Part shown: positions 4,847-56,610 of the stretch, piece by piece
Numbering within the stretch: position 1 is the first letter of the stretch
Layout of the letters: each line of letters opens with the position of its first letter
IMG/VR virus record: IMGVR_UViG_3300035703_000041
Coordinates: 31,225 to 95,224 of that record
Length of the DNA: 64,000 nt
DNA from: a virus
Reading direction: 5' to 3' (one strand)
Made by a program: the position numbers and the translations under genes
The notes under the pieces: model-generated
What the model was told of the DNA's origin: nothing
The model's database searches: none
What the model saw: only the letters and a program-made list of their open reading frames with translations

Positions 4847-4852
4847 TAAATA
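4847..4852 (+). promoter_or_regulatory. T4-like late promoter core TAAATA
   Basis: Same hexamer lies just upstream of many late-type genes (12467, 14746, 15881, 24083 as full TATAAATA, 43812, 47223, 59546, 63867). Confidence 0.6.
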
Positions 4853-4878: not shown

Positions 4879-7800
4879 ATGATCAATAAAACAATACTAA
4901 ATGAGGGCGGCAATGTTGAAATAGATGGCATTGCTGCCCAACGTCTTGATTTAAACAAAGTTTCTCGCAGTGCTGTAGTTGCTGAAATAGATAAAGCACT
5001 ACAAATTATTAACAGCACATTTAATAAAGCATACGGAGTTCCTTTATGGAGCCCAGAATTAATAAAAAACAAAGAGTTTTTAAGTGGTAGTGCGTTTCAC
5101 TTCTTTAACGTAAAAATACCAGATGATCAATTCACTAAAGTTAAGTCTAGCGTTGGTGACATCGACACTATGGTTGATAAAGATTTAGCACAAAAAGCAA
5201 GTGACTTTTTAACTAAAGCAAAAGGCAAGCAGTTTGGACCAGCAAAGTTAGTTGGCTTTAAACCTAACCCAGGAATGGATACACTTATTAGTTTGTGGCA
5301 ATTCAACAATCCACCTGTGAATGTACAAATAGATATGGAACTTGTCGACTACGATAAAGGTAGTCCAACAGAGTGGAGCAAGTTTAGCCACAGTAGCGCA
5401 TGGGAAGATTTAAGTGTTGGTGTTAAAGGCGTATTCCACAAGTATCTATTGCGTTCGCTAACACATAAAGATGCTAAAGATCGCTACATTCAAATGAAAA
5501 CAAAGCTTAAAAAAGTTACAGCAGCGGATTTAGCGTTTGCTGTTTCAGGTGGCGTGCGTAATAAGTTTGAACCAGTAATTGATCCAAAAACTAAAAAAAC
5601 AGCAGTAGCACCAGACGGACTTCCAATATACAAGGAAGTGCCAGCAAGTGAAAGCAAGTATGTAACAGACATTAAAGGTATGTTTACACTTTTAATTGGA
5701 CGCAAACCAGTTAAAGGTGAAGAAAAATTATTGGGTAGTTTTGTTGGCGTACTATCTTTAATCAACAAATATTTTAGCAATGAAGATAAAGATAAAATCA
5801 CAAGTGCATTTATGGCATTAATATTTGGCCCTGCTGCTCAACAACTATACAAAGGTGATCCAGCAACAGATAAAAGAGAAAAAGAAATTGCTCTTAACAA
5901 AATGTTGGAAATTTTAAAAGTTAATGTTGATAAAGCAAGTTTAGCAAAAACTGTTGCAGATTATTATTCTAAGTATAAAGCTGAATCAATTACAGAAGCA
6001 GATGCACCAGACTATAAGCGTCAAGGCATCAAGCACATTTATAATCCTGGCTCAACTGTTGAAATGAAAGATGTTGACTTCTTAGCATTTATTGATGCAA
6101 TTGCTAAGAATGGTGGCACACTTGATAACATACCAATTACACTTAAAGTAGATGGTGCAGGTATACGCTTTGGACGAGATCAAAGTGATAAACCATTTTT
6201 TATGACTAGTCGTGTTACAAATCCAATTTACGCTGATAACGTTGGTATGTTTGAAAAGTACGCTAGAGATAATAATGGCAATGAAGAACAAATTGCTCGT
6301 GCTGAAAAGTATGATCAAGCATTAAGTTTAATTGTTAACAGCGACTTTATTAAAGTATTACCAAAAGACACAATTGTCCAAGCAGAAATGATGTACAATC
6401 CAATGGCTGAAAAGACAAGTGCTGGACTTAAGTTTGTAAACATCCCATATGATCCAAAGTTACTTGGTAAACAAATGACGCTTGTGCCAATTGTCGCAAG
6501 TACATATTCAACTGGCGAAGCATTACCAAACACAATTCTTCAAAAAGTAATAAGCAAGTCTACTCCTCAAATTAAAATACTTGGTACTGAGTTACAGCAT
6601 AGCGATATTGATGTAAAAAATATTGTTGAACCAATTGCTAAGATGGATGATACGCTTCGTGCTGCGTTAGCAAGTAGGAAGAAAAATGATCCAGCAAAAG
6701 CAAAAGCAAAAGAAATACTAACAACAGCACGCAAGGCAATTAGTGATGCAATCATTAATAGCCCTAACATTAAAGGTAAAGATAAGCTAGGTAAGACTAT
6801 TGAAGGTTTAGTTATTGCTATGCCAAATGGTCAACTTGCTAAAGTTACCAGTAGCGAAATGAAAGGTGCAATGGCTGCAAAAGCTATTAAGAAAGCACCA
6901 ACAACAGGCAGCAATAGAACTAAAGCTGCTATTGTTACTGCTGGTAGCTTTGTTGGCCACATAGGTCATCAAAAAGTTGTTGATACTGTTATTAACTTTG
7001 CTAAAAAAGTTGGCGGTGACCCGTACATTTACATTAGCAGTAAAGTGGGACCAGATGATCCTATTCCACCAGAAGTAAAATTAGCTACTTGGAAGAAAAT
7101 GTATCCAGAGTATGCAAAAAGTTTCCAACTAATTGTAAGCCCAGATGGTGTAACTGTTCCAAGTCCAGTTAAAAAGATTGAAAAAGAATTAGTACTACCA
7201 GCAAACAGTCCTTACAAAAAGATTGTATTAATGGTTGGTACTGATCGTTATGAAGGTTTCAAGAAGTGGATGGATACTCTTGAAAAGCGTATGAAGGATC
7301 CAGTAGCATTAGCAAAATATGGTGGAACACAAGATCAAGTTGATTACGAAACTATTGCTATACCACGCGGCGCAGCATTAGGTGGTATTGATGCAAGCTT
7401 CACACAACTACGCAATACATTAAAAGATCCTAATCTTTCACTAAAAGAAAAGTTAGCTGTTTGGTCAAAAGGATTTGGTGGAAAGCTAGACGAAGATTGG
7501 ATCAAAAAGTTAATGATGCTTTCTGCTCAAGGCATGGGAATTAAGTTAGGAGAAGCTAAATCACCATGGGATAAAATGGTTAGAGCTGTTCCCAAACTAA
7601 AAGGACATGAAGATAGAGTTAACGATATATTAAAAGCAATTAAGCAAGCAAATGCAGAATATCAAGCAATACTTGATAAAGAAAAAAATCCATTAAAAGA
7701 AGATGATGATCTAAATGTCCGTTTCCATGATACATTAAATCCAGCACTATTTAGAAATAACAAGATGAGTCCTATCGTAAGAGAAAAGCTGCTAAAAATA

Positions 7801-10800
7801 GCAGAGGACTTTAAGGATAGTTTAGGTGTTAAGTTACCAAATCTAAAAGACATTACTGTAAGTGGCAGTAATGCTGCATTCACTTATACACCAAAAAGTG
7901 ATATTGATCTACACTTAGTTGTTGATTTACCTGAAGCAGATGGCGATGCTACTTATAGGGAATTGTTTGATGCTAAGAAGTTCCAATACAACGAGCAGCA
8001 TGACTACAAGATTAAAGAATACGATGTAGAACTTTATGTGCAAAATGCAAATGATGAACATGTAAGTCAAGGTATCTACAGTGTAATGAATGATGCTTGG
8101 ATTAAAGAACCACAACCAGTAAGTGGCGAGTACGATGAAGACAGCACACGCGCCAAATATGATCAAATAAAGTATCTCATACAAAAAGCATTAACTGTAA
8201 GAGATTATGCTTTAGCAGACAAGCTACGTCGAACTATTAAAAAGTATCGTCAAGTTGGGTTACATTCAACTGGTGAGTTTGGTCCTGAAAATCTTGCATT
8301 CAAAGCATTGCGTGCTAATGGCTACATTAAGAAACTGTATGAGTTATTAAATGATATTAAGGACAAAGAGTTTAGTTTAGAGAGTAACGATCAACGATTA
8401 CTTGAAATTGATATGAGTCCAGGAGCACTCAAAAAGTTCTCAACTACTGAGATTGCAAAGTCAACTAGTGTTGGTTTTGAGTTTGAAATGATCGTACCTA
8501 ACATGATAGATGACGGCAGTGAAAGTGAACCAGATTACGATTATGATGAATATGTAACAGATTCAACTGTTACTGCTATGCAAGATGATTTAATTAGATT
8601 CTTTAGAGATACTGAAACAAGTACAGCAATTAAACGAGCAGTTGAAGAAGTATCAGATGAAATAAATGATTTTATTTTAATGGAGTTTGATGGTGAATTA
8701 GATTCTGTAGATCAGCAGAGACGATTAAGAGAATTGTATAAAGCAGATACTTCACTCGAAGATGATGAAATAGAAAAGAGCATTGAAGATCAAGATAGCA
8801 CTTATGACGAAGTATTAAGTTCTTTGAGAGATGAGTATATGGAAGACTGGGACAATCTAAGTGGATTCTTAGAATATAACAGTCTTGAAATGATGTCTGA
8901 ATGGGCTAGTAGATTTAATTGGGAATGGCCACACTACACTGAAGCTGGCAGCGATGAAGTCGACGAACAAGCAATGCGTGAAGTAGCAGATGAAATCAAA
9001 AACGCTGTTAGTATGTCAGTTAGGTCTTCTCCTAATTATCATGCATTTAAGAAAAATAGAGAATCTGGTGTTTGGTATTTAGAAACTGATAGTTCAATTA
9101 ATGCTGATGAAAGTTCTGGTGAAGGTGGACTAGAATTAGTAAGTCCTCCATTGCCACTTGAGCAAGCATTAGAAAAGTTAGATGCAGTTCTAAATTGGAT
9201 GCAGAGATACGGCGCATATACTGATAGTTCAACTGGGTTCCATATGGGTGTAAGCATTCCGCAAATGGAAAATGTTGACTACATTAAGTTAATATTATTC
9301 CTAGGTGACAAATATGTATTAGATCAATTTGGTCGTTTAGGCAATTCATACACCCGCAGCGCACTAGATAAGATGGAAGTACAAAATGTTCCATATGTTA
9401 TGAAAAACATGCCAACTGTATTTGATGCTCTAAAAGGTGGATTAAACAAAGCAGCATTAAAAATGCTTGAATCAGCTCTTGTACCTCGAGGAGACAAATA
9501 TACTAGCGTAAACATTAAGGGCAGCACAACACCTAGTGGAGACATCAAGGATAATTACATTGAATTCCGTAGTGCTGGTGGAGATTACTTAGAAGCGATT
9601 GAAAAGATTAAAAATACACTATTGCGTTATGTTCGTGTAATGGCGCTTGCTGCTGATCCAAATGAAGCAAAGGAAGAGTATGCTAAGAAACTCTACAAGA
9701 TGCTATACAATGCTCAAAGCAATAAAAATGAAGATAATGTAGTTAGATTGTTTAGTATGTTTGCTAGCGGCAATATTTCAAAAGCAGAACTTGTAATGAA
9801 GCTTAAGGCAAAACAAGAATTAAGATTGGCAAAGAAAAGAGGCCCAATTGATTACGCAGTCTTAGATAGGAATAGCGATCCTATTACTATAGTTAAAGCA
9901 ATTAACAATAGCGAAGCTTTAACAAAAGGAATAGAATGGGAAAGAAGCAACCCAGTATCTGGCGGTGTGAGAGGTGTAAGATTAGCGACACTAGACGATA
10001 TAAAAGCTGTAGCTAATAGAAATACTGAAGGACAATGGCAACGTTGGAATGTTTATGGACACGAAGGACAAATCTTTACTAGTGTTTCAGCTCGCAATCG
10101 TCAAGAAGCAAGTCAACTTGCACTACGCTGGGGAAGAGAAAACGATAGTGTTATTTCTCATGTTACTCCTGAATCTGAGGATGAATTTGCAGCACTACAT
10201 AGAACAGAATCAAAAGAAGTTGTAACTGAACTTGCTAACAAGCCATACCCTTTTAAAACACAAGGCAATAAAAAGCATTTTCAAGCTCGTTTCGTAACAG
10301 ACAACAAACTAGTGTATAATGTTATGATTTTGGTCCCTCTTGAAGATTTTGAACCAAATAAAGCAGAAATAGAATTTTTCTCTGAAAATGAAGATGTTTT
10401 AAGAGGACATAAAATAACTGGAACTGGTGATTCTTTTAAAGTATTTGCGACTGTGTTAGAAATAATAAAAGCTTATCTAACAAAGCACAAAACAATCAAC
10501 GAATTTGAATTTGGTGCTAACAAAAGTGAACCGTCCCGTGTAAAGTTGTATGACACTATGGCAAAAATGTTACCAAAATATATTAATAATTTCAAATTTT
10601 TCAATAAGTATCCAAATAACTATAACGGATTCGCGTACCATTTTGTAAAAGTCAAAAAACCAACTACAGTAAAAGAAAATGAATTTGTAACTGAACTTGC
10701 TAATAAACCATATGAATATGATTTAGAAAGCGATAGCAGAGTTCTTCGTGCTACCTTTAAAACAGATGCTGGTCAACCTTATAGAATTTATATCGTAAAA

Positions 10801-11286
10801 GAGAAAGACGAAGAAGGGGAAGTAAAATATATCTCTGTTGAGTTCTCTGCTCTTAAATATGTAGATGGTCGATTCTTAACTACACAAGCTAAAACCGGAA
10901 CAGGTGACGCATTTAGAATATTTGCAACAGTTGGTGCAGTACTAAAACGCTATTTGGATGAAAATCCAGAAATTACTAGATTTGAATTCTCTGGTGATAA
11001 GGATGAACCAAGTCGAATAAAGCTATATGACACTATGGCTAAAATGTTGCCTAAGTTTATTCCACAATTCAAACTAATTGAAATTGAAAAAGGATTTATG
11101 TTTAATCATTATCAATTTTCAAAAGTAAGTAATGAATCAAAAAATCCAAGTTCATTGAAAGAATATATTGAAGTATCTTACAAACCTTTTATTCGAGAAA
11201 AGAAAGAAGAACCAAAAAAAGAGTTAACAGACATGCAAAAAGCGTGTATACTAGGCGGACAAGAATATACAGGTGAGATAAACTAA
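4879..11286 (+). CDS. 2135-aa multidomain polyprotein: Pol-beta-type nucleotidyltransferase, ligase-like domain, HIGH nucleotidyltransferase, second nucleotidyltransferase, amidoligase, duplicated C-terminal domain
   Basis: SGS...GDID...QIDM; KVDG...QAE...EGLVI...AK; GHIGH...VGTDR; SGSNA...SDIDLH; GFEFE...LELVSPP...GFHMGVS...IEFRS; two VTELANKPY repeats; domains separated by [LIV]xE linkers. Confidence 0.8.
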   Translation: MINKTILNEGGNVEIDGIAAQRLDLNKVSRSAVVAEIDKALQIINSTFNKAYGVPLWSPELIKNKEFLSGSAFHFFNVKIPDDQFTKVKSSVGDIDTMVDKDLAQKASDFLTKAKGKQFGPAKLVGFKPNPGMDTLISLWQFNNPPVNVQIDMELVDYDKGSPTEWSKFSHSSAWEDLSVGVKGVFHKYLLRSLTHKDAKDRYIQMKTKLKKVTAADLAFAVSGGVRNKFEPVIDPKTKKTAVAPDGLPIYKEVPASESKYVTDIKGMFTLLIGRKPVKGEEKLLGSFVGVLSLINKYFSNEDKDKITSAFMALIFGPAAQQLYKGDPATDKREKEIALNKMLEILKVNVDKASLAKTVADYYSKYKAESITEADAPDYKRQGIKHIYNPGSTVEMKDVDFLAFIDAIAKNGGTLDNIPITLKVDGAGIRFGRDQSDKPFFMTSRVTNPIYADNVGMFEKYARDNNGNEEQIARAEKYDQALSLIVNSDFIKVLPKDTIVQAEMMYNPMAEKTSAGLKFVNIPYDPKLLGKQMTLVPIVASTYSTGEALPNTILQKVISKSTPQIKILGTELQHSDIDVKNIVEPIAKMDDTLRAALASRKKNDPAKAKAKEILTTARKAISDAIINSPNIKGKDKLGKTIEGLVIAMPNGQLAKVTSSEMKGAMAAKAIKKAPTTGSNRTKAAIVTAGSFVGHIGHQKVVDTVINFAKKVGGDPYIYISSKVGPDDPIPPEVKLATWKKMYPEYAKSFQLIVSPDGVTVPSPVKKIEKELVLPANSPYKKIVLMVGTDRYEGFKKWMDTLEKRMKDPVALAKYGGTQDQVDYETIAIPRGAALGGIDASFTQLRNTLKDPNLSLKEKLAVWSKGFGGKLDEDWIKKLMMLSAQGMGIKLGEAKSPWDKMVRAVPKLKGHEDRVNDILKAIKQANAEYQAILDKEKNPLKEDDDLNVRFHDTLNPALFRNNKMSPIVREKLLKIAEDFKDSLGVKLPNLKDITVSGSNAAFTYTPKSDIDLHLVVDLPEADGDATYRELFDAKKFQYNEQHDYKIKEYDVELYVQNANDEHVSQGIYSVMNDAWIKEPQPVSGEYDEDSTRAKYDQIKYLIQKALTVRDYALADKLRRTIKKYRQVGLHSTGEFGPENLAFKALRANGYIKKLYELLNDIKDKEFSLESNDQRLLEIDMSPGALKKFSTTEIAKSTSVGFEFEMIVPNMIDDGSESEPDYDYDEYVTDSTVTAMQDDLIRFFRDTETSTAIKRAVEEVSDEINDFILMEFDGELDSVDQQRRLRELYKADTSLEDDEIEKSIEDQDSTYDEVLSSLRDEYMEDWDNLSGFLEYNSLEMMSEWASRFNWEWPHYTEAGSDEVDEQAMREVADEIKNAVSMSVRSSPNYHAFKKNRESGVWYLETDSSINADESSGEGGLELVSPPLPLEQALEKLDAVLNWMQRYGAYTDSSTGFHMGVSIPQMENVDYIKLILFLGDKYVLDQFGRLGNSYTRSALDKMEVQNVPYVMKNMPTVFDALKGGLNKAALKMLESALVPRGDKYTSVNIKGSTTPSGDIKDNYIEFRSAGGDYLEAIEKIKNTLLRYVRVMALAADPNEAKEEYAKKLYKMLYNAQSNKNEDNVVRLFSMFASGNISKAELVMKLKAKQELRLAKKRGPIDYAVLDRNSDPITIVKAINNSEALTKGIEWERSNPVSGGVRGVRLATLDDIKAVANRNTEGQWQRWNVYGHEGQIFTSVSARNRQEASQLALRWGRENDSVISHVTPESEDEFAALHRTESKEVVTELANKPYPFKTQGNKKHFQARFVTDNKLVYNVMILVPLEDFEPNKAEIEFFSENEDVLRGHKITGTGDSFKVFATVLEIIKAYLTKHKTINEFEFGANKSEPSRVKLYDTMAKMLPKYINNFKFFNKYPNNYNGFAYHFVKVKKPTTVKENEFVTELANKPYEYDLESDSRVLRATFKTDAGQPYRIYIVKEKDEEGEVKYISVEFSALKYVDGRFLTTQAKTGTGDAFRIFATVGAVLKRYLDENPEITRFEFSGDKDEPSRIKLYDTMAKMLPKFIPQFKLIEIEKGFMFNHYQFSKVSNESKNPSSLKEYIEVSYKPFIREKKEEPKKELTDMQKACILGGQEYTGEIN
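10220..11130 (+). repeat. tandem duplication of a ~150-aa domain inside the giant ORF
   Basis: TTGTAACTGAACTTGCTAAyAArCCATA at 10220 and 10685; both copies contain TGTGD(S/A)F.(V/I)FATV and EPSR.KLYDTMAKMLPK. Confidence 0.9.
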
Positions 11287-11287
11287 A

Positions 11288-11434
11288 ATGCCAGAGAAAA
11301 AGTTTAATGATGACACTGCTAAAACTATTTGGAACAAACTAAAAGGTAAGGATGTTCCACAAGACTACAGTGATAAAGACAAGGAAGATATTGTTAAACG
11401 ATACTGGCATAAAGCAATGGAAAGCGAACAGTAG
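11288..11434 (+). CDS. small hypothetical protein (48 aa, not in ORF track)
   Basis: MPEKKFNDDTAKTIWNKLKG...AMESEQ*; its TAG stop overlaps the GTG start of the next gene. Confidence 0.6.
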   Translation: MPEKKFNDDTAKTIWNKLKGKDVPQDYSDKDKEDIVKRYWHKAMESEQ

Positions 11435-14776: not shown

Positions 14777-15163
14777 ATGACTAAGAAGAGAATTAAAGAA
14801 GGCCTCAGCGACGAAGCTATGGCAGTTGACCGCGACCATGAGGTACAAATGGCTCGCGCTCAACTTTATCATTTAGCTAATGATGCTGTACGCTTACATA
14901 AGTTGTTAAAGAACGTAACTGAATCAGAAGGACTAGAAGGTTGGATGCAAAGCAAGATTACACTTGCTGCGGACTACATTAAATCAACTGCTGATTACTT
15001 GGAATACGATAAGATTAAAGCACCTAGACCAGTAACAGTTACTCCAGCACCAATGATGCCAACTGCTGGTATGCCTGAAAGTGTAAGCGCAGGTGGTATG
15101 GGTGCTGGATCGGTTGCTACTGCTCCAATGGCTCTTAAAAAGAAACCATTAGTTAGAAGATAA
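14777..15163 (+). CDS. hypothetical protein, probable head-internal protein
   Basis: TAAATA at 14746, GGAG SD; RIKE|G leader; LEGWMQSKITLAADY helix motif. Confidence 0.7.
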   Translation: MTKKRIKEGLSDEAMAVDRDHEVQMARAQLYHLANDAVRLHKLLKNVTESEGLEGWMQSKITLAADYIKSTADYLEYDKIKAPRPVTVTPAPMMPTAGMPESVSAGGMGAGSVATAPMALKKKPLVRR

Positions 15164-15844
15164 TTTCAATATTTCCCAAGTATGCTCCCAGTTTTCAACA
15201 CGGTGAGCAATATCAACACTAACAGCCAGGGGGTAATCATTTCCCCCTGGCAATGTTTTATCACCAAAGAAAATAACTGGGCCTGTAGGTTTAATAAACT
15301 CTAATACTTGGCGCTTATCTTTACCTGTAGGGTAAATGTCTATTCCAGTATCACCACCAATCATAAAGTCAATGTTTTTGAACTGGCGTTCAAGTCTTAA
15401 TGCTATATCAATCCGCTCACCGTGTTCTTCATCATACTTTTTGTATGTGTCTCGCTGTTGGGAATCAGCGCCGCGACCTAATACACTAAAATTTACTAGT
15501 CCAGTTCGAATTTCTATATGATTCCCTGTACGTATGGGAAACTTACTGTTAGTTAATTCTTCATCTAACGCATCAATTAGTTCGTGTGGTGGTTGCCAGT
15601 TTGAAGCATGTGTTATTAGCTTACCTATTCTTACTTCGTTCCCGCAACAGTTAAAGATCATTTTAGCGTTATCTATTACTTCTTCCCCAACTTGTGCTAA
15701 AGTTTTAGGATAATCACTTCCAGTAACAAGATAAGTATTATGTGTTTTTTGCCACTCAACAAACCAATCTTTAAATTTAGGATCCATTTTAGCCCTGCTT
15801 GGTGTTAGTGTACCATCTACGTCAAAAACATAACTTATATTCAT
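15149..15844 (-). CDS. HAD-IIB hydrolase, eukaryotic-type phosphomannomutase-like
   Basis: FDVDGTLTPSR, LVTGSD, IEIRTGLVNFS, FFGDKTLPGGNDY; start at MNISY assumed. Confidence 0.85.
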   Translation of the reverse strand: MNISYVFDVDGTLTPSRAKMDPKFKDWFVEWQKTHNTYLVTGSDYPKTLAQVGEEVIDNAKMIFNCCGNEVRIGKLITHASNWQPPHELIDALDEELTNSKFPIRTGNHIEIRTGLVNFSVLGRGADSQQRDTYKKYDEEHGERIDIALRLERQFKNIDFMIGGDTGIDIYPTGKDKRQVLEFIKPTGPVIFFGDKTLPGGNDYPLAVSVDIAHRVENWEHTWEILKLSSN

Positions 15845-15905
15845 GTTTAAATTTAACATAAGTTATATGTTAAAATCAAATAAATAAACAATATTGGAGA
15901 CTTGA

Positions 15906-16334
15906 ATGTCACGCGGATTAATGAAAAAGTATATAGATATACTAATGGAAGCTTTAAGCTATTCCAGCTTGCAAGATGCAGGAGATGATTATAGTCCTGG
16001 CAATACTCAAATTTGGTATTGGAGAGAAGATCTTGGACGCGATATGATGATGGGATATGATTTCCTTAAAAAGCAAAACAAGCTTCCGGATCCAGCAAAT
16101 TTATCAGCTACACATGTACTAATTGGTAGCATTGCTGAAACTAATTTAGATAAAATTTATTCAATGATGCAATCAGAAAGTTGGAGCCCACAGGGTGAAG
16201 CTAGAGATTTAATTAATAAAAGCGGGGCTGGTCATACAAGTATGAGTGTTGGTGATATTATTGTAATTAATAATGATGCATCTATGGTTGATAAAGTTGG
16301 GTTCGTAAACCTAGCAACAGGGGAAGAAATATAA
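15906..16334 (+). CDS. YodL-like domain protein with MKKYIDILME leader
   Basis: GHTSMSVGDII motif; TAAATA at 15881. Confidence 0.6.
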   Translation: MSRGLMKKYIDILMEALSYSSLQDAGDDYSPGNTQIWYWREDLGRDMMMGYDFLKKQNKLPDPANLSATHVLIGSIAETNLDKIYSMMQSESWSPQGEARDLINKSGAGHTSMSVGDIIVINNDASMVDKVGFVNLATGEEI

Positions 16335-17710
16335 TGTTACTTGAAAGTTTATTAAAAGAGTTTGATGAAGCAGTAAACAAACCTAAATTTACTGGTTATT
16401 GGAAAGCTCAAGATAAAGCACCTCCAGGCAAGAAAATGGTTGGTGAAGAAGAAAAAACTACAGAAGCATCAACTTTGGATACTGACATTGAATATGAACC
16501 AAGTGTAGATCAAGAGTTTGATAAGAAAGAGCTTGCAGCATTGTTAACTCAAAAATTAACAGGACTAGCACCAAAAGAAGAACGAGCAATTAGATTAAAA
16601 ATATTTTATGATTATACTTATGATCAAATTGGTGAAAAATTTGGGGTATCTGGTGATAGAGCAAGAGACATCTTTATGAAGGGAATTAGAAAATTGAGGC
16701 ACCCTTCTCGCGCGAGAGAAATTAGACCTTTCCTTGAGGATGAAAATCCAACAGATAAAATTACAATGGATATACCACTATTTTTACGTATGATGGAATA
16801 TGCTAAAGAAGATGCAAAAACAGATATGGACTTGCATCAAGTAACTGCTCGCGCAATAGAATTAATGCAACAACATGACTACCTATGTATGGATAATTAT
16901 GATACTATCATAAACAATAGCGAACCTATAGATGAAGGTTGGTTAGATAAAGTTTACTCTGCTGGTCGTAACTTTGCTGATACTGCCACTCTAGGTGGTT
17001 ACAAGTATGCACGAGCTGGTGCTGATTACGCTGCTAAGAACATTGGCAATAAATTAGGGTTCGATGTGAAACCTACCACATATCAAAAAGAACTTGATCA
17101 GGAAGTTGAAAAACTTAACAAAGATTGGGAAAAGGAACCAGGTGCAAGTCTAGCTGGCATGGGTGGAGCAATGGCTTTACCTCTAGCCGGTCAATACGGC
17201 GCTGCTGTTAAAGGCGCACAGGGGTTAGGTGGTCAAGCATTAGATGCTTACGGTAAGTTTGTTAAAACATATCCATTGGCTAAAAAAGCTTTAGGTTTAG
17301 AAAACAAAGATGAAGATATAGATGAAGAGAAAAAAGGTCTTTACTATTATGTAAACAAGCGTAAAAAGGCTGGCACAAGCAGACCAGCTAGTCATCCAAA
17401 AGCACCAAGCGAACAAGATTGGAAGAACGCTGCTAAGACTGCAAAGAAAGAAAGTGTGGGCGAAGCGGGTCAATTTTCATATGGAGCTAAAACTCCACGC
17501 AAAGGCACAGTTGCTTACAACGCAGCACAAAAGCGTAAAGAAGATGAAAAAAGACAAAAACCAATTGAGCCAAAAGATCAAATGGTCGGTGTTGCTAAGG
17601 TAACAAAAGAAGGCAAGGAAAAAGGCGCTGATGGCAAAGCTTGCTGGCCAGGTTATCGTTATGCTGGCACAGAGAACGGCAAAGACAAGTGTGTGAAAGT
17701 TAAGAAGTAA
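16334..17710 (+). CDS. mosaic polyprotein containing a sigma70 region-4 HTH module and several short basic modules
   Basis: LAPKEERAIRL...TYDQIGEKFGVSGDRARDI..KGIRKLRHPSR; modules bounded by LKE, VGE, FLE, IDE. Confidence 0.75.
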   Translation: MLLESLLKEFDEAVNKPKFTGYWKAQDKAPPGKKMVGEEEKTTEASTLDTDIEYEPSVDQEFDKKELAALLTQKLTGLAPKEERAIRLKIFYDYTYDQIGEKFGVSGDRARDIFMKGIRKLRHPSRAREIRPFLEDENPTDKITMDIPLFLRMMEYAKEDAKTDMDLHQVTARAIELMQQHDYLCMDNYDTIINNSEPIDEGWLDKVYSAGRNFADTATLGGYKYARAGADYAAKNIGNKLGFDVKPTTYQKELDQEVEKLNKDWEKEPGASLAGMGGAMALPLAGQYGAAVKGAQGLGGQALDAYGKFVKTYPLAKKALGLENKDEDIDEEKKGLYYYVNKRKKAGTSRPASHPKAPSEQDWKNAAKTAKKESVGEAGQFSYGAKTPRKGTVAYNAAQKRKEDEKRQKPIEPKDQMVGVAKVTKEGKEKGADGKACWPGYRYAGTENGKDKCVKVKK

Positions 17711-19315
17711 ATGTTAATTAAAGATTTGCTACAAGGATCTACGCATGTTAATGAGGATGCTATATCAGATCTTGCCAGTAAATTAAAGAGTACTAAAGCA
17801 ACAAGTTATGATAATATCGATGCAATTATGCAAAAGATAGCAAAAGACAATAATATAACAGCTAAAGAATTACACGACATTTGGGTAAAAAAGTACGGTG
17901 AAAAACCAGATGATTGGATTAAAGATCAACTTAATGAAGCATTAACCGCTAAAGATACAGTTGAACGTTGGATTGCTGTTTTTAAAAGTAGTAAGCATCC
18001 AAAGTTTGCAGGTAAAACTCCTGAGCAGCGTGAGAAGATGGCAAGAGCTGCACAATATCGTGCAGTTCATAATAAAAAAATTAATGAAGCAAAAGTAACA
18101 CTATATACTGATCCATCATACTATGGTGCTGAAGTTGCAGACAATGCTGGCGAAGGTATACCCGTACAAGAAATACCATTAGACAATTTAGTTGGGTTTG
18201 AACCTGACGTTAAAATGCAGGACAAAAAGAGTGCAGCCAATATGTCTAAAATGGTTGACCTATTGAAAGCAGGCAAGGGCAAAGAACTACCACCAATACT
18301 AGTACGCAAGTATAAAAATGGTTATCAAGTATTAGATGGACATCATAGATTCCATGCTTACAAGAAAGCTGGAATAAAAACTATTCCAGCTAAACTTGTT
18401 CCTGATGAAGATATCAAAGTTGTTGATAAAATTGAAGAAGGTCCAGTTTGGGATAAAGTAAAGAATACTGCACTTGCTGGAACAATGGCAGGTGCGCTAG
18501 GGTATGGTGCGCTAACAGGGCAGTTACGTGACGAACCAAGGCAAGTGCCAGTTGACAAACCTCCTTTAGAAATTACTATACCAGGTGGTCAAGCAGAACC
18601 TGAAGTTAAAAAAGAACCAGAAAAACTATCACCAAGTACCGCTACAAACGCAAACAAAGAAATGGAAAAACTCGTGCTAACTGTTGCTTATCGCTCTGGG
18701 ATAAGAGGTCAAGAGTTGGCACAATTCATGGGACAAGTTGCTCATGAGACACTAGGATTTCAACGTTTAGTAGAAGTTGGTAGCGCAGAATACTTTAATA
18801 GATATGATCCAGAACATAGTCCTAAAAAAGCAAAGATACTTGGTAATGTTAATCCTGGTGACGGCATACGTTATAAAGGTCGCGGGTTTATACAAATAAC
18901 TGGGCGTGACAACTATAAGCGTGCTGGGAAAGCACTAGGGATTGATTTAGAAAATAACCCAAAGTGGGCAAGCAGTCCTAAAATTGCTGCTAAGATCGCT
19001 GTATGGTATTGGAAAAGTAGAGTAAAACCAGCAGTGGATGACTATACTGATACTATTGGTGTTACTTCAAAAATTAATCCTAGTATGAATGGTCTTGGTG
19101 ATAGAGACATGAACTTTCATCATTATTTAGAAAAGCTTAATTTAAATGAAAATTTTGCTGATGGAAAGAAACCAGGACGCAAGGGATTAGCCAAAAGAGT
19201 TGGTGTTAATTGTAAACAAAGCGTGACAAAGTTAAGAAAAATTGCTAGTAATAGTAGTGGTGAAAAACAGCGTATGGCACATTGGTGTGCAAATATGAAA
19301 GGCGGCAAAAAATGA
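17711..19315 (+). CDS. mosaic polyprotein with a ParB/Srx-like domain and a GH19 (lysozyme/chitinase) domain
   Basis: PPILVRK...VLDGHHR; AQFMGQVAHET...YKGRGFIQITGRDNY; linkers VNE, LNE, INE, IEE, LNE. Confidence 0.8.
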   Translation: MLIKDLLQGSTHVNEDAISDLASKLKSTKATSYDNIDAIMQKIAKDNNITAKELHDIWVKKYGEKPDDWIKDQLNEALTAKDTVERWIAVFKSSKHPKFAGKTPEQREKMARAAQYRAVHNKKINEAKVTLYTDPSYYGAEVADNAGEGIPVQEIPLDNLVGFEPDVKMQDKKSAANMSKMVDLLKAGKGKELPPILVRKYKNGYQVLDGHHRFHAYKKAGIKTIPAKLVPDEDIKVVDKIEEGPVWDKVKNTALAGTMAGALGYGALTGQLRDEPRQVPVDKPPLEITIPGGQAEPEVKKEPEKLSPSTATNANKEMEKLVLTVAYRSGIRGQELAQFMGQVAHETLGFQRLVEVGSAEYFNRYDPEHSPKKAKILGNVNPGDGIRYKGRGFIQITGRDNYKRAGKALGIDLENNPKWASSPKIAAKIAVWYWKSRVKPAVDDYTDTIGVTSKINPSMNGLGDRDMNFHHYLEKLNLNENFADGKKPGRKGLAKRVGVNCKQSVTKLRKIASNSSGEKQRMAHWCANMKGGKK

Positions 19316-50244: not shown

Positions 50245-50421
50245 ATGATGAGTGATAAAAAGATGGTCAAGCTTAATGTAGAAGGCATTAATGCTGAGAT
50301 TGAAGAAGATCTAATACAAGATGCAATGGCAATTCATGGTATTGACATTGTTAAAGAAATGACCGAAGTATTACAAAAAGAAACCGCTATTGAAAAGGAA
50401 AGAACAAATGAGCTAGGTTGA
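50245..50421 (+). CDS. small protein resembling a fragment of a gp23-type major capsid protein (not in ORF track)
   Basis: TAAGGA SD; LIQDAMAIHGIDIVKEM. Confidence 0.55.
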   Translation: MMSDKKMVKLNVEGINAEIEEDLIQDAMAIHGIDIVKEMTEVLQKETAIEKERTNELG

Positions 50422-55959: not shown

Positions 55960-56293
55960 AGTTAAAGAATTTGAATTTAATGGTCTACGATTTTTTATAT
56001 CTAAGCATCCTATCAACACGAATCACCGTAAAATTTGGTCCGAAAGTAATGTTAGTCCAACTGAAATGAAAATAGTATGTAAAGATTTAGGCGACAAACG
56101 TTGGATGTGTAGAGCAGAAGTGCCGGCAGAGCAAGCTCGAGAGTTTGAGTCTTGGGTAGAGGAAACTATGAGTGAACGTTGCCTAATCAGCAAAGAATTT
56201 GAACATGATCCAGATGGCACACTAAGACGTATCTACGAAGTTCGTGGCGGAGATGTTAGTGACAGAACAATGTTAATGTTGAGGTGGAAATGA
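55949..56293 (+). CDS. hypothetical protein (short paralog array)
   Basis: Ends SDRTMLMLRWK. Confidence 0.7.
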   Translation: MKIEVKEFEFNGLRFFISKHPINTNHRKIWSESNVSPTEMKIVCKDLGDKRWMCRAEVPAEQAREFESWVEETMSERCLISKEFEHDPDGTLRRIYEVRGGDVSDRTMLMLRWK

Positions 56294-56610
56294 AATTAGA
56301 TAAAGTAAAAGTTGAAGCAAAGACGAGAACGTTATCAGCCAATTACACTGTTGAACAGTCTGAAGAGATTGAACACATTCTTGGTGACGAATTACAAAAA
56401 GAGATTGATAATGAAGTAATGAATTCAATTCTTGGACCTACACTAAGAGAAAGAGGTTGGTATCCTATTGTATTAAAAGATACATATTGGGCGGATATTC
56501 CAAAAGAATGGATTGCAGGAAATATTCAATACGAATATAGTTGCTTTGGTAGTTATTGGTATTTTGCAAATCAAGCAGACGCTACTGCATTTGCATTAAA
56601 ATGGACATAA
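56290..56610 (+). CDS. paralog-array protein with an N-terminal gp23 major-capsid-like fragment
   Basis: KLDKVKVEAKTRTLSANYTVE...ILGDELQKEIDNEVM; ends DATAFALKWT. Confidence 0.7.
   Translation: MKLDKVKVEAKTRTLSANYTVEQSEEIEHILGDELQKEIDNEVMNSILGPTLRERGWYPIVLKDTYWADIPKEWIAGNIQYEYSCFGSYWYFANQADATAFALKWT

Follow-up and report, generated by a model that had tools for sequence, protein, structure and literature searches.

Why should a phage gene that does not specify a sigma factor carry the tail end of one? The question is raised by a 64,000-nucleotide stretch of viral DNA (referred to here as the window), which forms the final 64 kb of the 95,224-bp IMG/VR record IMGVR_UViG_3300035703_000041 (CheckV completeness 26%; 38% G+C). 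A modular gene in the window, P0001, contains a segment that resembles the C-terminus of RpoD, the primary sigma factor of bacteria. To judge from the sequence comparisons that follow, this segment, designated the sigma cassette or S4, is a true homologue of the primary sigma C-terminus, and it probably interferes with host transcription.

The peptide to which an initial annotation of the locus had drawn attention, as an isolated mimic of RpoD region 4 at positions 16520-16740, occurs letter for letter and in frame within the open reading frame (ORF) at 16334-17710 on the plus strand (translation ...LAPKEERAIRLKIFYDYTYDQIGEKFGVSGDRARDIFMKGIRKLRHPSRAREIRPFLED). The Pfam family Sigma70_r4 (PF04545) matches residues 76-123 of the encoded protein with 29.3 bits against a gathering cut-off of 24.1 bits (E 6e-7), so that the profile check proposed in the annotation came out above the cut-off, and a six-frame scan of the entire 95-kb record showed no Sigma70_r4 match other than this one (33.6 bits). 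A phmmer search of the PDB returned 58 chains, all 58 of which are group-1 (primary) sigma factors, RpoD or SigA, the best being Caulobacter RpoD (7ye1_F, E 1.2e-11). These alignments reach the final residue of RpoD, with the KLRHPSR...FLE tail lying on the RpoD end, which bears out the assignment to an RpoD-type C-terminal module as opposed to a generic helix-turn-helix (HTH). In tblastn, query residues 2-101 of 106 align nearly gaplessly to plasmid-borne rpoD genes; positions 135-237 of the 238 positions in TIGR02393 (RpoD_Cterm) pair with residues 34-134; and in the direct alignment STLDTDIEYEP pairs with the motif S-x-L-G-D-F-I-E-D of the region 3.2 finger. An alternative alignment that placed a 14-residue deletion over the finger tip was dropped in favor of the near-gapless tblastn, phmmer and HMM alignments. 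Homology to sigma factors covers residues 46-136 and extends from the distal half of the region 3.2 "sigma finger" to the exact C-terminal end of RpoD. The homologous part corresponds to approximately residues 517-613 of E. coli sigma70; after the distal finger and the linker between regions 3.2 and 4 come region 4.1, region 4.2 and the C-terminal helix.

In the AlphaFold2 (AF2) model of the whole protein the mean pLDDT is 52, and the only confident part, approximately residues 58-134 (pLDDT 77-93), consists of five helices (58-74, 80-92, 96-103, 107-121 and 124-134). The top Foldseek matches are all sigma70 or sigmaA chains, and isolated sigma-4 domains match with TM scores of 0.64-0.69 and an rmsd of 2.1-3.0 Å. 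Sigma-factor families are the only PHROGs and Pfam families that match the cassette stretch, and the families of AsiA, gp33 and P23-45 gp39 gave no sequence match to the cassette in either collection. MzaA, the sigma factor of the MZA anti-phage system, was considered as an identity for the cassette and rejected, as the match reaches 44.2 bits against a cut-off of 800 and the PADLOC MzaA model gives 239 bits with P0238, which is an ordinary RpoD. The best 80 rpoD tails in GTDB are nearly all alphaproteobacterial (38-47% identity), a result of a pattern scan that may be biased and is to be taken as a lead. An alphaproteobacterial-type donor would fit the cultured phages that are nearest to this one, as their hosts are Alphaproteobacteria.

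Judged by its domain content, the cassette cannot be a sigma factor, because regions 1, 2 and 3.0/3.1 are absent and the cut-offs of the RpoD families are missed by an order of magnitude (41 versus 555 bits for the equivalog NF004208, and 35.8 versus 354 bits for TIGR02393). In Pfam, neither Sigma70_r2 nor Sigma70_r3 is matched in P0001, and Sigma70_r2 is matched nowhere in the 95-kb record. The view of the initial annotation that regions 2 and 3 are missing is therefore correct for region 2 and for regions 3.0/3.1 but not for the distal half of region 3.2, which is present at TIGR02393 positions 135-237. The module as first delimited lies inside the actual unit, which is slightly wider and comprises residues 38-136 (nucleotides 16445-16741), and the glutamate-containing flanks ascribed to it are found at residues 36-39 (VGE/E) and 133-136 (FLE/D), where the slash marks the border. 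The description of the gene as a polyprotein, on the other hand, was not established; P0001 is an ordinary 458-residue gene that consists of shuffled short modules and belongs to a four-gene operon, and a long multi-enzyme polyprotein is ruled out.

Relatives of P0001 numbered 641 in one large protein search and 4,924 in another, and most of them have no more than one or two short stretches in common with it. Among the 238 proteins that were fetched (protein clusters), the sigma module is present in six, namely P0001, P0002, P0003, P0019, P0022 and P0144, and occurs in three architectures. The five copies other than that of P0001 score 47-56 bits with Sigma70_r4, and all six, with pairwise identities of 39-86%, are open and foldable. 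Compared with 74 RpoD C-termini taken from the 80 GTDB loci, the phage copies keep 26-29 of the 68 RpoD columns that are at least 95% conserved. A 4-residue deletion in the loop between regions 4.1 and 4.2 is common to all six copies, as are the substitutions A594G, E591F/V and G564F/Y, and Q589D is found in every copy except that of P0144. The G+C content of the cassette is 34.7% (18% at third codon positions, GC3), which is no higher than that of the rest of the gene. Because the deletion and the derived substitutions are shared and the composition is phage-like, the comparison argues for a single ancient capture, followed by movement among modular proteins, over repeated recent pick-ups.

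The residues of sigma region 4 that read TTGACA have been defined by genetics and by structures on -35 DNA. In the P0001 copy the equivalents of R584, E585, R588 and Q589 are G, D, R and D, respectively; R584 is replaced by Gly in P0001-P0003, and the equivalent of E585 is Glu in none of the six copies. Reading of TTGACA by the P0001 copy is unlikely, and should be abolished, because the -35-reading residues E585, Q589 and R584 are changed. The same pattern, in which E585 is never Glu, Q589 is Asp in five of the six copies and R584 is Gly in P0001, makes competition for -35 elements, one of the activities first suggested for the peptide, less likely. The residues that have been kept include the hydrophobic core, RKLRHPSR and, in P0001-P0003, the F-L pair in the last helix that is equivalent to F610/L611. 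One report (PMC6755090) describes how mutation of F610/L611 impairs binding of MotA and how the flap tip targets the same residues. The best conserved part of the cassette is the acidic finger/linker (residues 46-66), in which 15-17 of 21 positions (71-81%) are identical between the two phage subgroups, as compared with 11-12 of 25 positions (44-48%) in region 4.1. In sigma factors the finger/linker has no role at the DNA; it passes beneath the flap and through the RNA exit channel. That this segment is so well conserved is the main argument for supposing that the cassette is aimed at RNA polymerase and not at DNA.

The sigma piece is an optional, rare and dispensable cassette. In a syntenic relative, L177, and in contigs of two sequencing runs it is replaced by 6-10 residues at the same breakpoints. 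The ortholog in L177, where the gene order is the same, reads ...GKKMVGGE-SVNKEA-ENPTDK..., with 6 residues in place of the 99 in P0001, and DNA identity between the two genes restarts exactly at GAAAATCCAACAGATAAA. Position 16445 is joined to 16742 or 16744 in one contig of X1, which may be the source sample, and in two X7 contigs (two runs from two studies), and in the X7 contigs, which come from a freshwater metagenome, 25-29 different letters lie between the joined positions and the frame is preserved. The occupied form is represented by a 223-nucleotide X2 contig from a third study, which spans the junction of module W and the cassette with zero differences. Of the public runs listed as holding this DNA, none is an RNA run. 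P0004 and P0005 match the other parts of P0001 at 92-96% identity, yet neither has the cassette. The slot between modules W and D is variable in the proteins compared, as it may be empty or may hold the sigma cassette, a module of about 100 residues (NFTIDDIKQLE...; P0006 and P0009) or one of about 230 residues (P0004), the last of which matches no family. Neither the cassette nor a sigma-4 match was found in any of 85 related viral loci or in any of five large related records. Word-index searches of near-length and shorter proteins yielded no stand-alone form of the cassette and returned only P0002, P0003 and two RpoD fragments. A scan of IMG/VR for the cassette gave one spurious match, L004, within an unrelated 1933-residue ORF, and scans of JGI metagenomes and GTDB, which were dominated by genuine rpoD genes (at most 47% identity), gave no further phage copies.

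The lineage of the phage bears on what the cassette might do. The family-B DNA polymerase shares 50% identity with its counterpart in Sinorhizobium phage Phosso, 44-46% with those of Atu_ph07, GAP32 and CBB, and 63-69% with those of the uncultured phage records G001-G003 and G005 (327-345 kb), and because of these identities the source, a freshwater phage, is classed as a T4-related jumbo phage with a genome of about 340-360 kb. A homologue of the T4 late sigma factor gp55 is encoded by G001-G003, and since relatives possess a late sigma of this type the lineage depends on host RNA polymerase in the manner of T4. A head protease of the gp21 family (Peptidase_S77, 85-95 bits) is encoded by G001-G004 and Phosso, with all three near-complete relatives positive. 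The gp55-like genes of the relatives (G001:215746-215958, G002:206337-206549 and L256 of G003) sit in ORFs of 302-321 residues, compared with 185 residues for T4 gp55, and the extra part of these ORFs has no Sigma70_r4 match. Partial matches to Gp23, the T4 major capsid family, were seen at approximately 56224-56430 (30.8 bits), where the match is broken by one TGA and one TAG, and at approximately 50254-50394 (17 bits).

The remaining parts of P0001 suggest how the cassette might be deployed. P0001 was divided at homology matches into a leader and the modules W, S4, D, G, Y, Q and C, for which the 238 proteins were then searched, and the order of the modules proved to be permuted among these proteins (G-Y and Y-G, C-Y and Y-C, W-S4 and S4-W). 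The borders had been set from homology before sites of the form [LIVMF]-x-E were mapped on them, and all seven such sites in P0001 fall on module borders (LLE/S, FDE/A, VGE/E, FLE/D, IDE/G, IDE/E and VGE/A). In 38 of the 72 distinct contexts of module Y the motif [LIVM]xE[GAS] lies no more than 8 residues upstream of the module, about ninefold more often than the 4.1 +/- 2.0 expected, and it lies at this distance upstream of G in 5 of 11 contexts (0.2 expected) and upstream of module D in 8 of 52 (2.4 expected). The junctions just before the cassette in the six copies are TTE/A, TLE/A, IQE/V, IAE/V and STE/S. Similar leaders are present on the ORFs at 11434, 12492, 14192, 16334, 17711 and 60440, those of the neighboring ORFs reading MKIKELLEG, MLIKDLLQG, MLLTDYY, MLLVDLFEGG and MIIEELFLVEG, and none is homologous to the T4 targeting sequence. 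The T4 protease gp21 cuts after (L/I)-x-E. Given the x-x-E borders, the similar leaders and the gp21-type protease in relatives, capsid loading and cutting of the modular proteins is plausible by analogy with T4. The internal proteins of T4 are themselves a diverse set whose only common feature is the capsid targeting sequence (PMC3012670).

Because the lineage uses host RNA polymerase and T4-type phages manipulate the sigma-4/flap-tip site by means of AsiA and gp33, a reading can be offered, tentatively and with somewhat less than even confidence, in which a domesticated sigma tail, the cassette, takes up the sigma-4 site on the host enzyme or vies with other proteins for it, maybe as T4-style capsid cargo cut at x-x-E. 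The phage would have domesticated the C-terminal 97 or so residues of an alphaproteobacterial-type primary sigma factor and kept them as a cassette in the variable slot of a late "beads-on-a-string" modular protein. The residues that read TTGACA would have been lost in the process, whereas the acidic linker above all, but also the fold of sigma-4 and the RKLRHPSR...F-L tail, would have been retained. In a real sigma factor, region 4, the tail and the linker lie on the beta flap tip, the C-terminal region of beta and the RNA exit channel. The cassette may sit on the sigma-4 docking site of the host enzyme, or compete for it, and the outcome would be a weakening of -35-dependent host transcription as with T4 AsiA or gp33, brought about in this case by a genuine sigma homologue. 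Delivery might follow the route of the T4 internal proteins, with prohead targeting, gp21-type cutting at x-x-E and injection together with the DNA. Binding to RNA polymerase, timing, cleavage and packaging are all presumed in this scheme. When the cassette alignment was modeled together with residues 831-1057 of E. coli beta, the predicted complex scored 0.30, with the mark at 0.32, and was counted neither for nor against binding. A more specific version, in which the sigma tail is packaged in the capsid, released by the protease and injected along with the DNA, threads its acidic finger/linker into the RNA exit channel, clamps the beta flap tip with region 4 and, as a dominant negative, silences -35-dependent host promoters from the first minute of infection, is unlikely; if true, it would be the first phage weapon against RNA polymerase made from the host's own sigma factor.

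Several considerations weigh against a domesticated sigma tail acting at the docking site. Any role of the cassette would be accessory, because it is absent from all five large relatives. At least the P0144 copy could still bind DNA, as its recognition helix has remained canonical. Immediately upstream of the cassette the strict [LIVM]xE[GAS] motif is found in just one of five distinct contexts, and the glutamate-rich borders in general could stem from linker composition and not from cleavage. An injected factor that blocks -35 recognition could also harm the phage's own early sigma70-dependent promoters. Finally, genes for gp55, the Peptidase_S77 head protease and the major capsid protein were not found in the 95-kb record, which says little, as the record is 26% complete.

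A sound alternative that keeps RNA polymerase as the target is that the cassette tethers the remaining modules of P0001 to the enzyme. If the target were DNA, the cassette could be a retargeted HTH that binds another sequence, or DNA in general, and either tethers the protein to phage DNA, for example in the capsid, or regulates a phage promoter, making no contact with RNA polymerase. Isolated sigma region 4 can indeed bind -35 DNA (PDB entry 1ku7 is among the fold matches), the basic residues R586, R588, K593, R596, K597 and R599 are kept, the P0144 helix (TRDRIRQI) is near-canonical, and the adjacent modules Y, Q and C are strongly basic (pI 9.3-9.9), as are DNA-associated internal proteins. 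Nevertheless, the DNA-facing positions in P0001 have gained Gly and Asp (R584G, E585D and Q589D), conservation is highest in the finger/linker, and the C-terminal F-L pair that contacts the flap and MotA is kept, which leaves this an improbable use of the fold. The cassette might instead be a decoy, a sigma-4 mimic that soaks up anti-sigma factors, activators, AsiA-like proteins of rival phages or partners of MzaA-type defense sigma factors. Sigma mimicry is known as a means of titration from PhyR-NepR, the RKLRHPSR patch that contacts activators and anti-sigma factors is intact, and a variable slot is typical of modules engaged in an arms race. MzaA is both the top NCBIfam match and the sole PADLOC match of the cassette, but given the RpoD score on the same model this match does not discriminate. 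A candidate partner was not found in the window, and the known binders of sigma-4 leave the conservation of the finger/linker unexplained, so that a decoy seems quite unlikely.

That the cassette does nothing is more difficult to maintain. An inert passenger, a fragment of a sigma gene introduced by illegitimate recombination into a tolerant linker slot and lacking a function of its own, would fit its rarity (6 of 238 proteins, 0 of 85 viral loci and 0 of 5 large relatives) and its dispensability, yet six copies as divergent as these remain open and foldable in three contexts with shared derived substitutions, their composition is fully phage-like, and the identical form recurs in the X2 run of another study; a passenger is very unlikely on these grounds. 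The least probable role is that of one half of a split sigma factor, in which the cassette would provide region 4 to the gp55-like late sigma, which has region 2 only, and so replace or supplement a flap binder of the gp33 type. Relatives do encode gp55-like proteins, the gene lies behind a late-type TAAATA box, and T4 gp33 acts on the flap in late transcription. Sigma70_r4 is found nowhere in the closely related genomes, however, and late promoters of the T4 type are without a -35 element. As orthologous genes are without the cassette, late transcription cannot depend on it, and this dispensability nearly excludes a split sigma.

The proposed action of the domesticated sigma tail can be set against known systems. 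With region 3.2-4 of RpoD/SigA, and most closely that of alphaproteobacterial RpoD, the cassette shares about 97 residues homologous to the exact C-terminus, the five-helix fold, and RKLRHPSR together with F-L; it differs in that regions 1, 2 and 3.0/3.1 are absent, only about 40% of the invariant positions are kept, the loop carries a deletion, and the phage protein that surrounds it is not a sigma factor. Small proteins unrelated to sigma, among them AsiA, gp33 and gp39, are known means by which phages seize the contact between sigma-4 and the beta flap. T4 AsiA has been described as a functional mimic of sigma region 4 and acts at sigma-4, the beta flap tip and the C-terminal region of beta, with the result that host -35 promoters are not read (PMC6755090). 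The site and effect are those proposed for the cassette, but AsiA is unrelated to sigma-4 in sequence and fold, binds and remodels sigma-4, and is a free 10-kDa early protein, whereas the cassette is a sigma homologue in what would be a late modular protein.

T4 gp33, a coactivator of late transcription, takes the place of sigma-4 on the beta flap. It resembles the cassette as proposed in occupying the flap in a lineage whose gp55-type late sigma lacks region 4, and differs in being not homologous to sigma-4 and essential for late transcription, in contrast to the optional and rare cassette. The T4 internal proteins IPI-III and Alt, the last of which is injected and modifies host RNA polymerase, offer a parallel in their diversity and rapid change as late proteins, their similar short leaders, their glutamate-ending junctions and the presence of a gp21-type protease in the lineage. 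The phage family described here is set apart by having several permuted modules per protein and leaders that are not homologous to MKTYQEFIAE. PhyR, which belongs to the general stress response of Alphaproteobacteria, has a degenerate sigma-derived domain that does not act as a sigma factor and competes for a partner of sigma. The principle of sigma mimicry by such a domain is shared, although PhyR is cellular, controlled by phosphorylation and derived from regions 2 and 4 of an extracytoplasmic function (ECF) sigma factor, and the cassette is phage-borne and derives from the tail of a group-1 sigma. If the proposal is true, a diverged sigma piece would constitute a new route to interference at the sigma-4/flap contact and a dominant-negative sigma fragment of natural origin. 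The record of which residues have been retained and which lost may serve as a natural mutational map that separates contact of sigma-4 with the polymerase from DNA reading, and a shuffled, possibly capsid-delivered family of this kind would supply uncultured jumbo phages with small modules directed at the host.

Table 1. Location of the sigma cassette, the other parts of P0001 and the adjoining features of the operon (positions in the window; a slash marks a module border).
Feature	Position	Strand	Remarks
TAAATA box, T4-late-promoter-like	15881..15886	+	19 nt 5' of the first gene of the operon; putative promoter
Upstream ORF, 142 aa	15906..16334	+	Stop codon overlaps the start codon of the modular gene; synteny kept in L177
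Modular gene P0001, 458 aa, leader-W-S4-D-G-Y-Q-C	16334..17710	+	Modules drawn from matches in the 238 proteins
N-terminal leader, aa 1-13 (MLLESLLKEFDE/A)	16334..16372	+	Leaders of neighboring ORFs similar; resembles T4 capsid targeting in form only
Module W, aa 14-37 (PKFTGYWK...GKKMVG)	16373..16444	+	In 32 of 238 proteins; C-terminal to the cassette in P0144
Sigma cassette S4, aa 38-136	16445..16741	+	Bounds from presence/absence breakpoints
Acidic segment, aa 46-66 (STLDTDIEYEPSVDQEFDKKE)	16469..16531	+	Homologous to distal sigma finger and 3.2/4 linker; disordered in AF2
Sigma region 4 (4.1, 4.2 and C-terminal helix), aa 67-136	16532..16741	+	Pfam match at nt 16559-16702
Module D, aa 137-198 (NPTDKITMDIPLFLRMMEYAKEDAKTDMDLH...)	16742..16927	+	Most widespread module
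Module G, aa 199-326	16928..17311	+	Helical, Gly/Ala-rich stretch
Modules Y (aa 327-382, KKGLYYYVNKRKK...) and Q (aa 383-431)	17312..17626	+	Basic, pI 9.3 and 9.9
Module C, aa 432-458 (GADGKACWPGYRY...CVKVKK)	17627..17707	+	Beta hairpin, pLDDT 65-78
ParB_N + glycoside hydrolase 19 fusion, modular	17711..19315	+	Next gene in the operon

The features listed in Table 1 belong to an operon of four genes, the last of which encodes a PGDYG-domain protein and follows the gene for the fusion of ParB_N and glycoside hydrolase 19 (GH19). In the 64-kb window TAAATA is found 15-30 nucleotides upstream of six ORF starts, as compared with 0.72 expected, and the full T4 late box TATAAATA occurs once as compared with 7.65 expected, which suggests that this phage uses a variant late-promoter consensus. 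The operon is read as late by analogy only. The TAAATA sites are at 4847, 12467, 14746, 15881, 24085 and 43812, frequently in the form aaaTAAATA.

Over 100 of the 238 proteins contain module D, as does the uncultured phage LR756501 (735 kb), and its identity reaches about 80% across otherwise unrelated proteins; it matches no Pfam family, and its fold, predicted with low confidence, gave no informative match. The 142-residue product of the upstream ORF has a weak YodL-like Pfam match and nothing else. The ParB_N-GH19 protein, whose GH19 part is lysozyme/chitinase-like, carries a leader similar to the one in P0001, and in 79 viral loci its parts are found apart from one another. On the minus strand at 15149-15859, inside the block of modular genes, lies a gene for a eukaryote-type phosphomannomutase (PF03332, E 4e-30), which is syntenic in L177. 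Farther upstream, at 4879-11286, an ORF of 2135 residues has a TAAATA box of its own and several unrelated PHROG matches, including a cytidyltransferase-like stretch.

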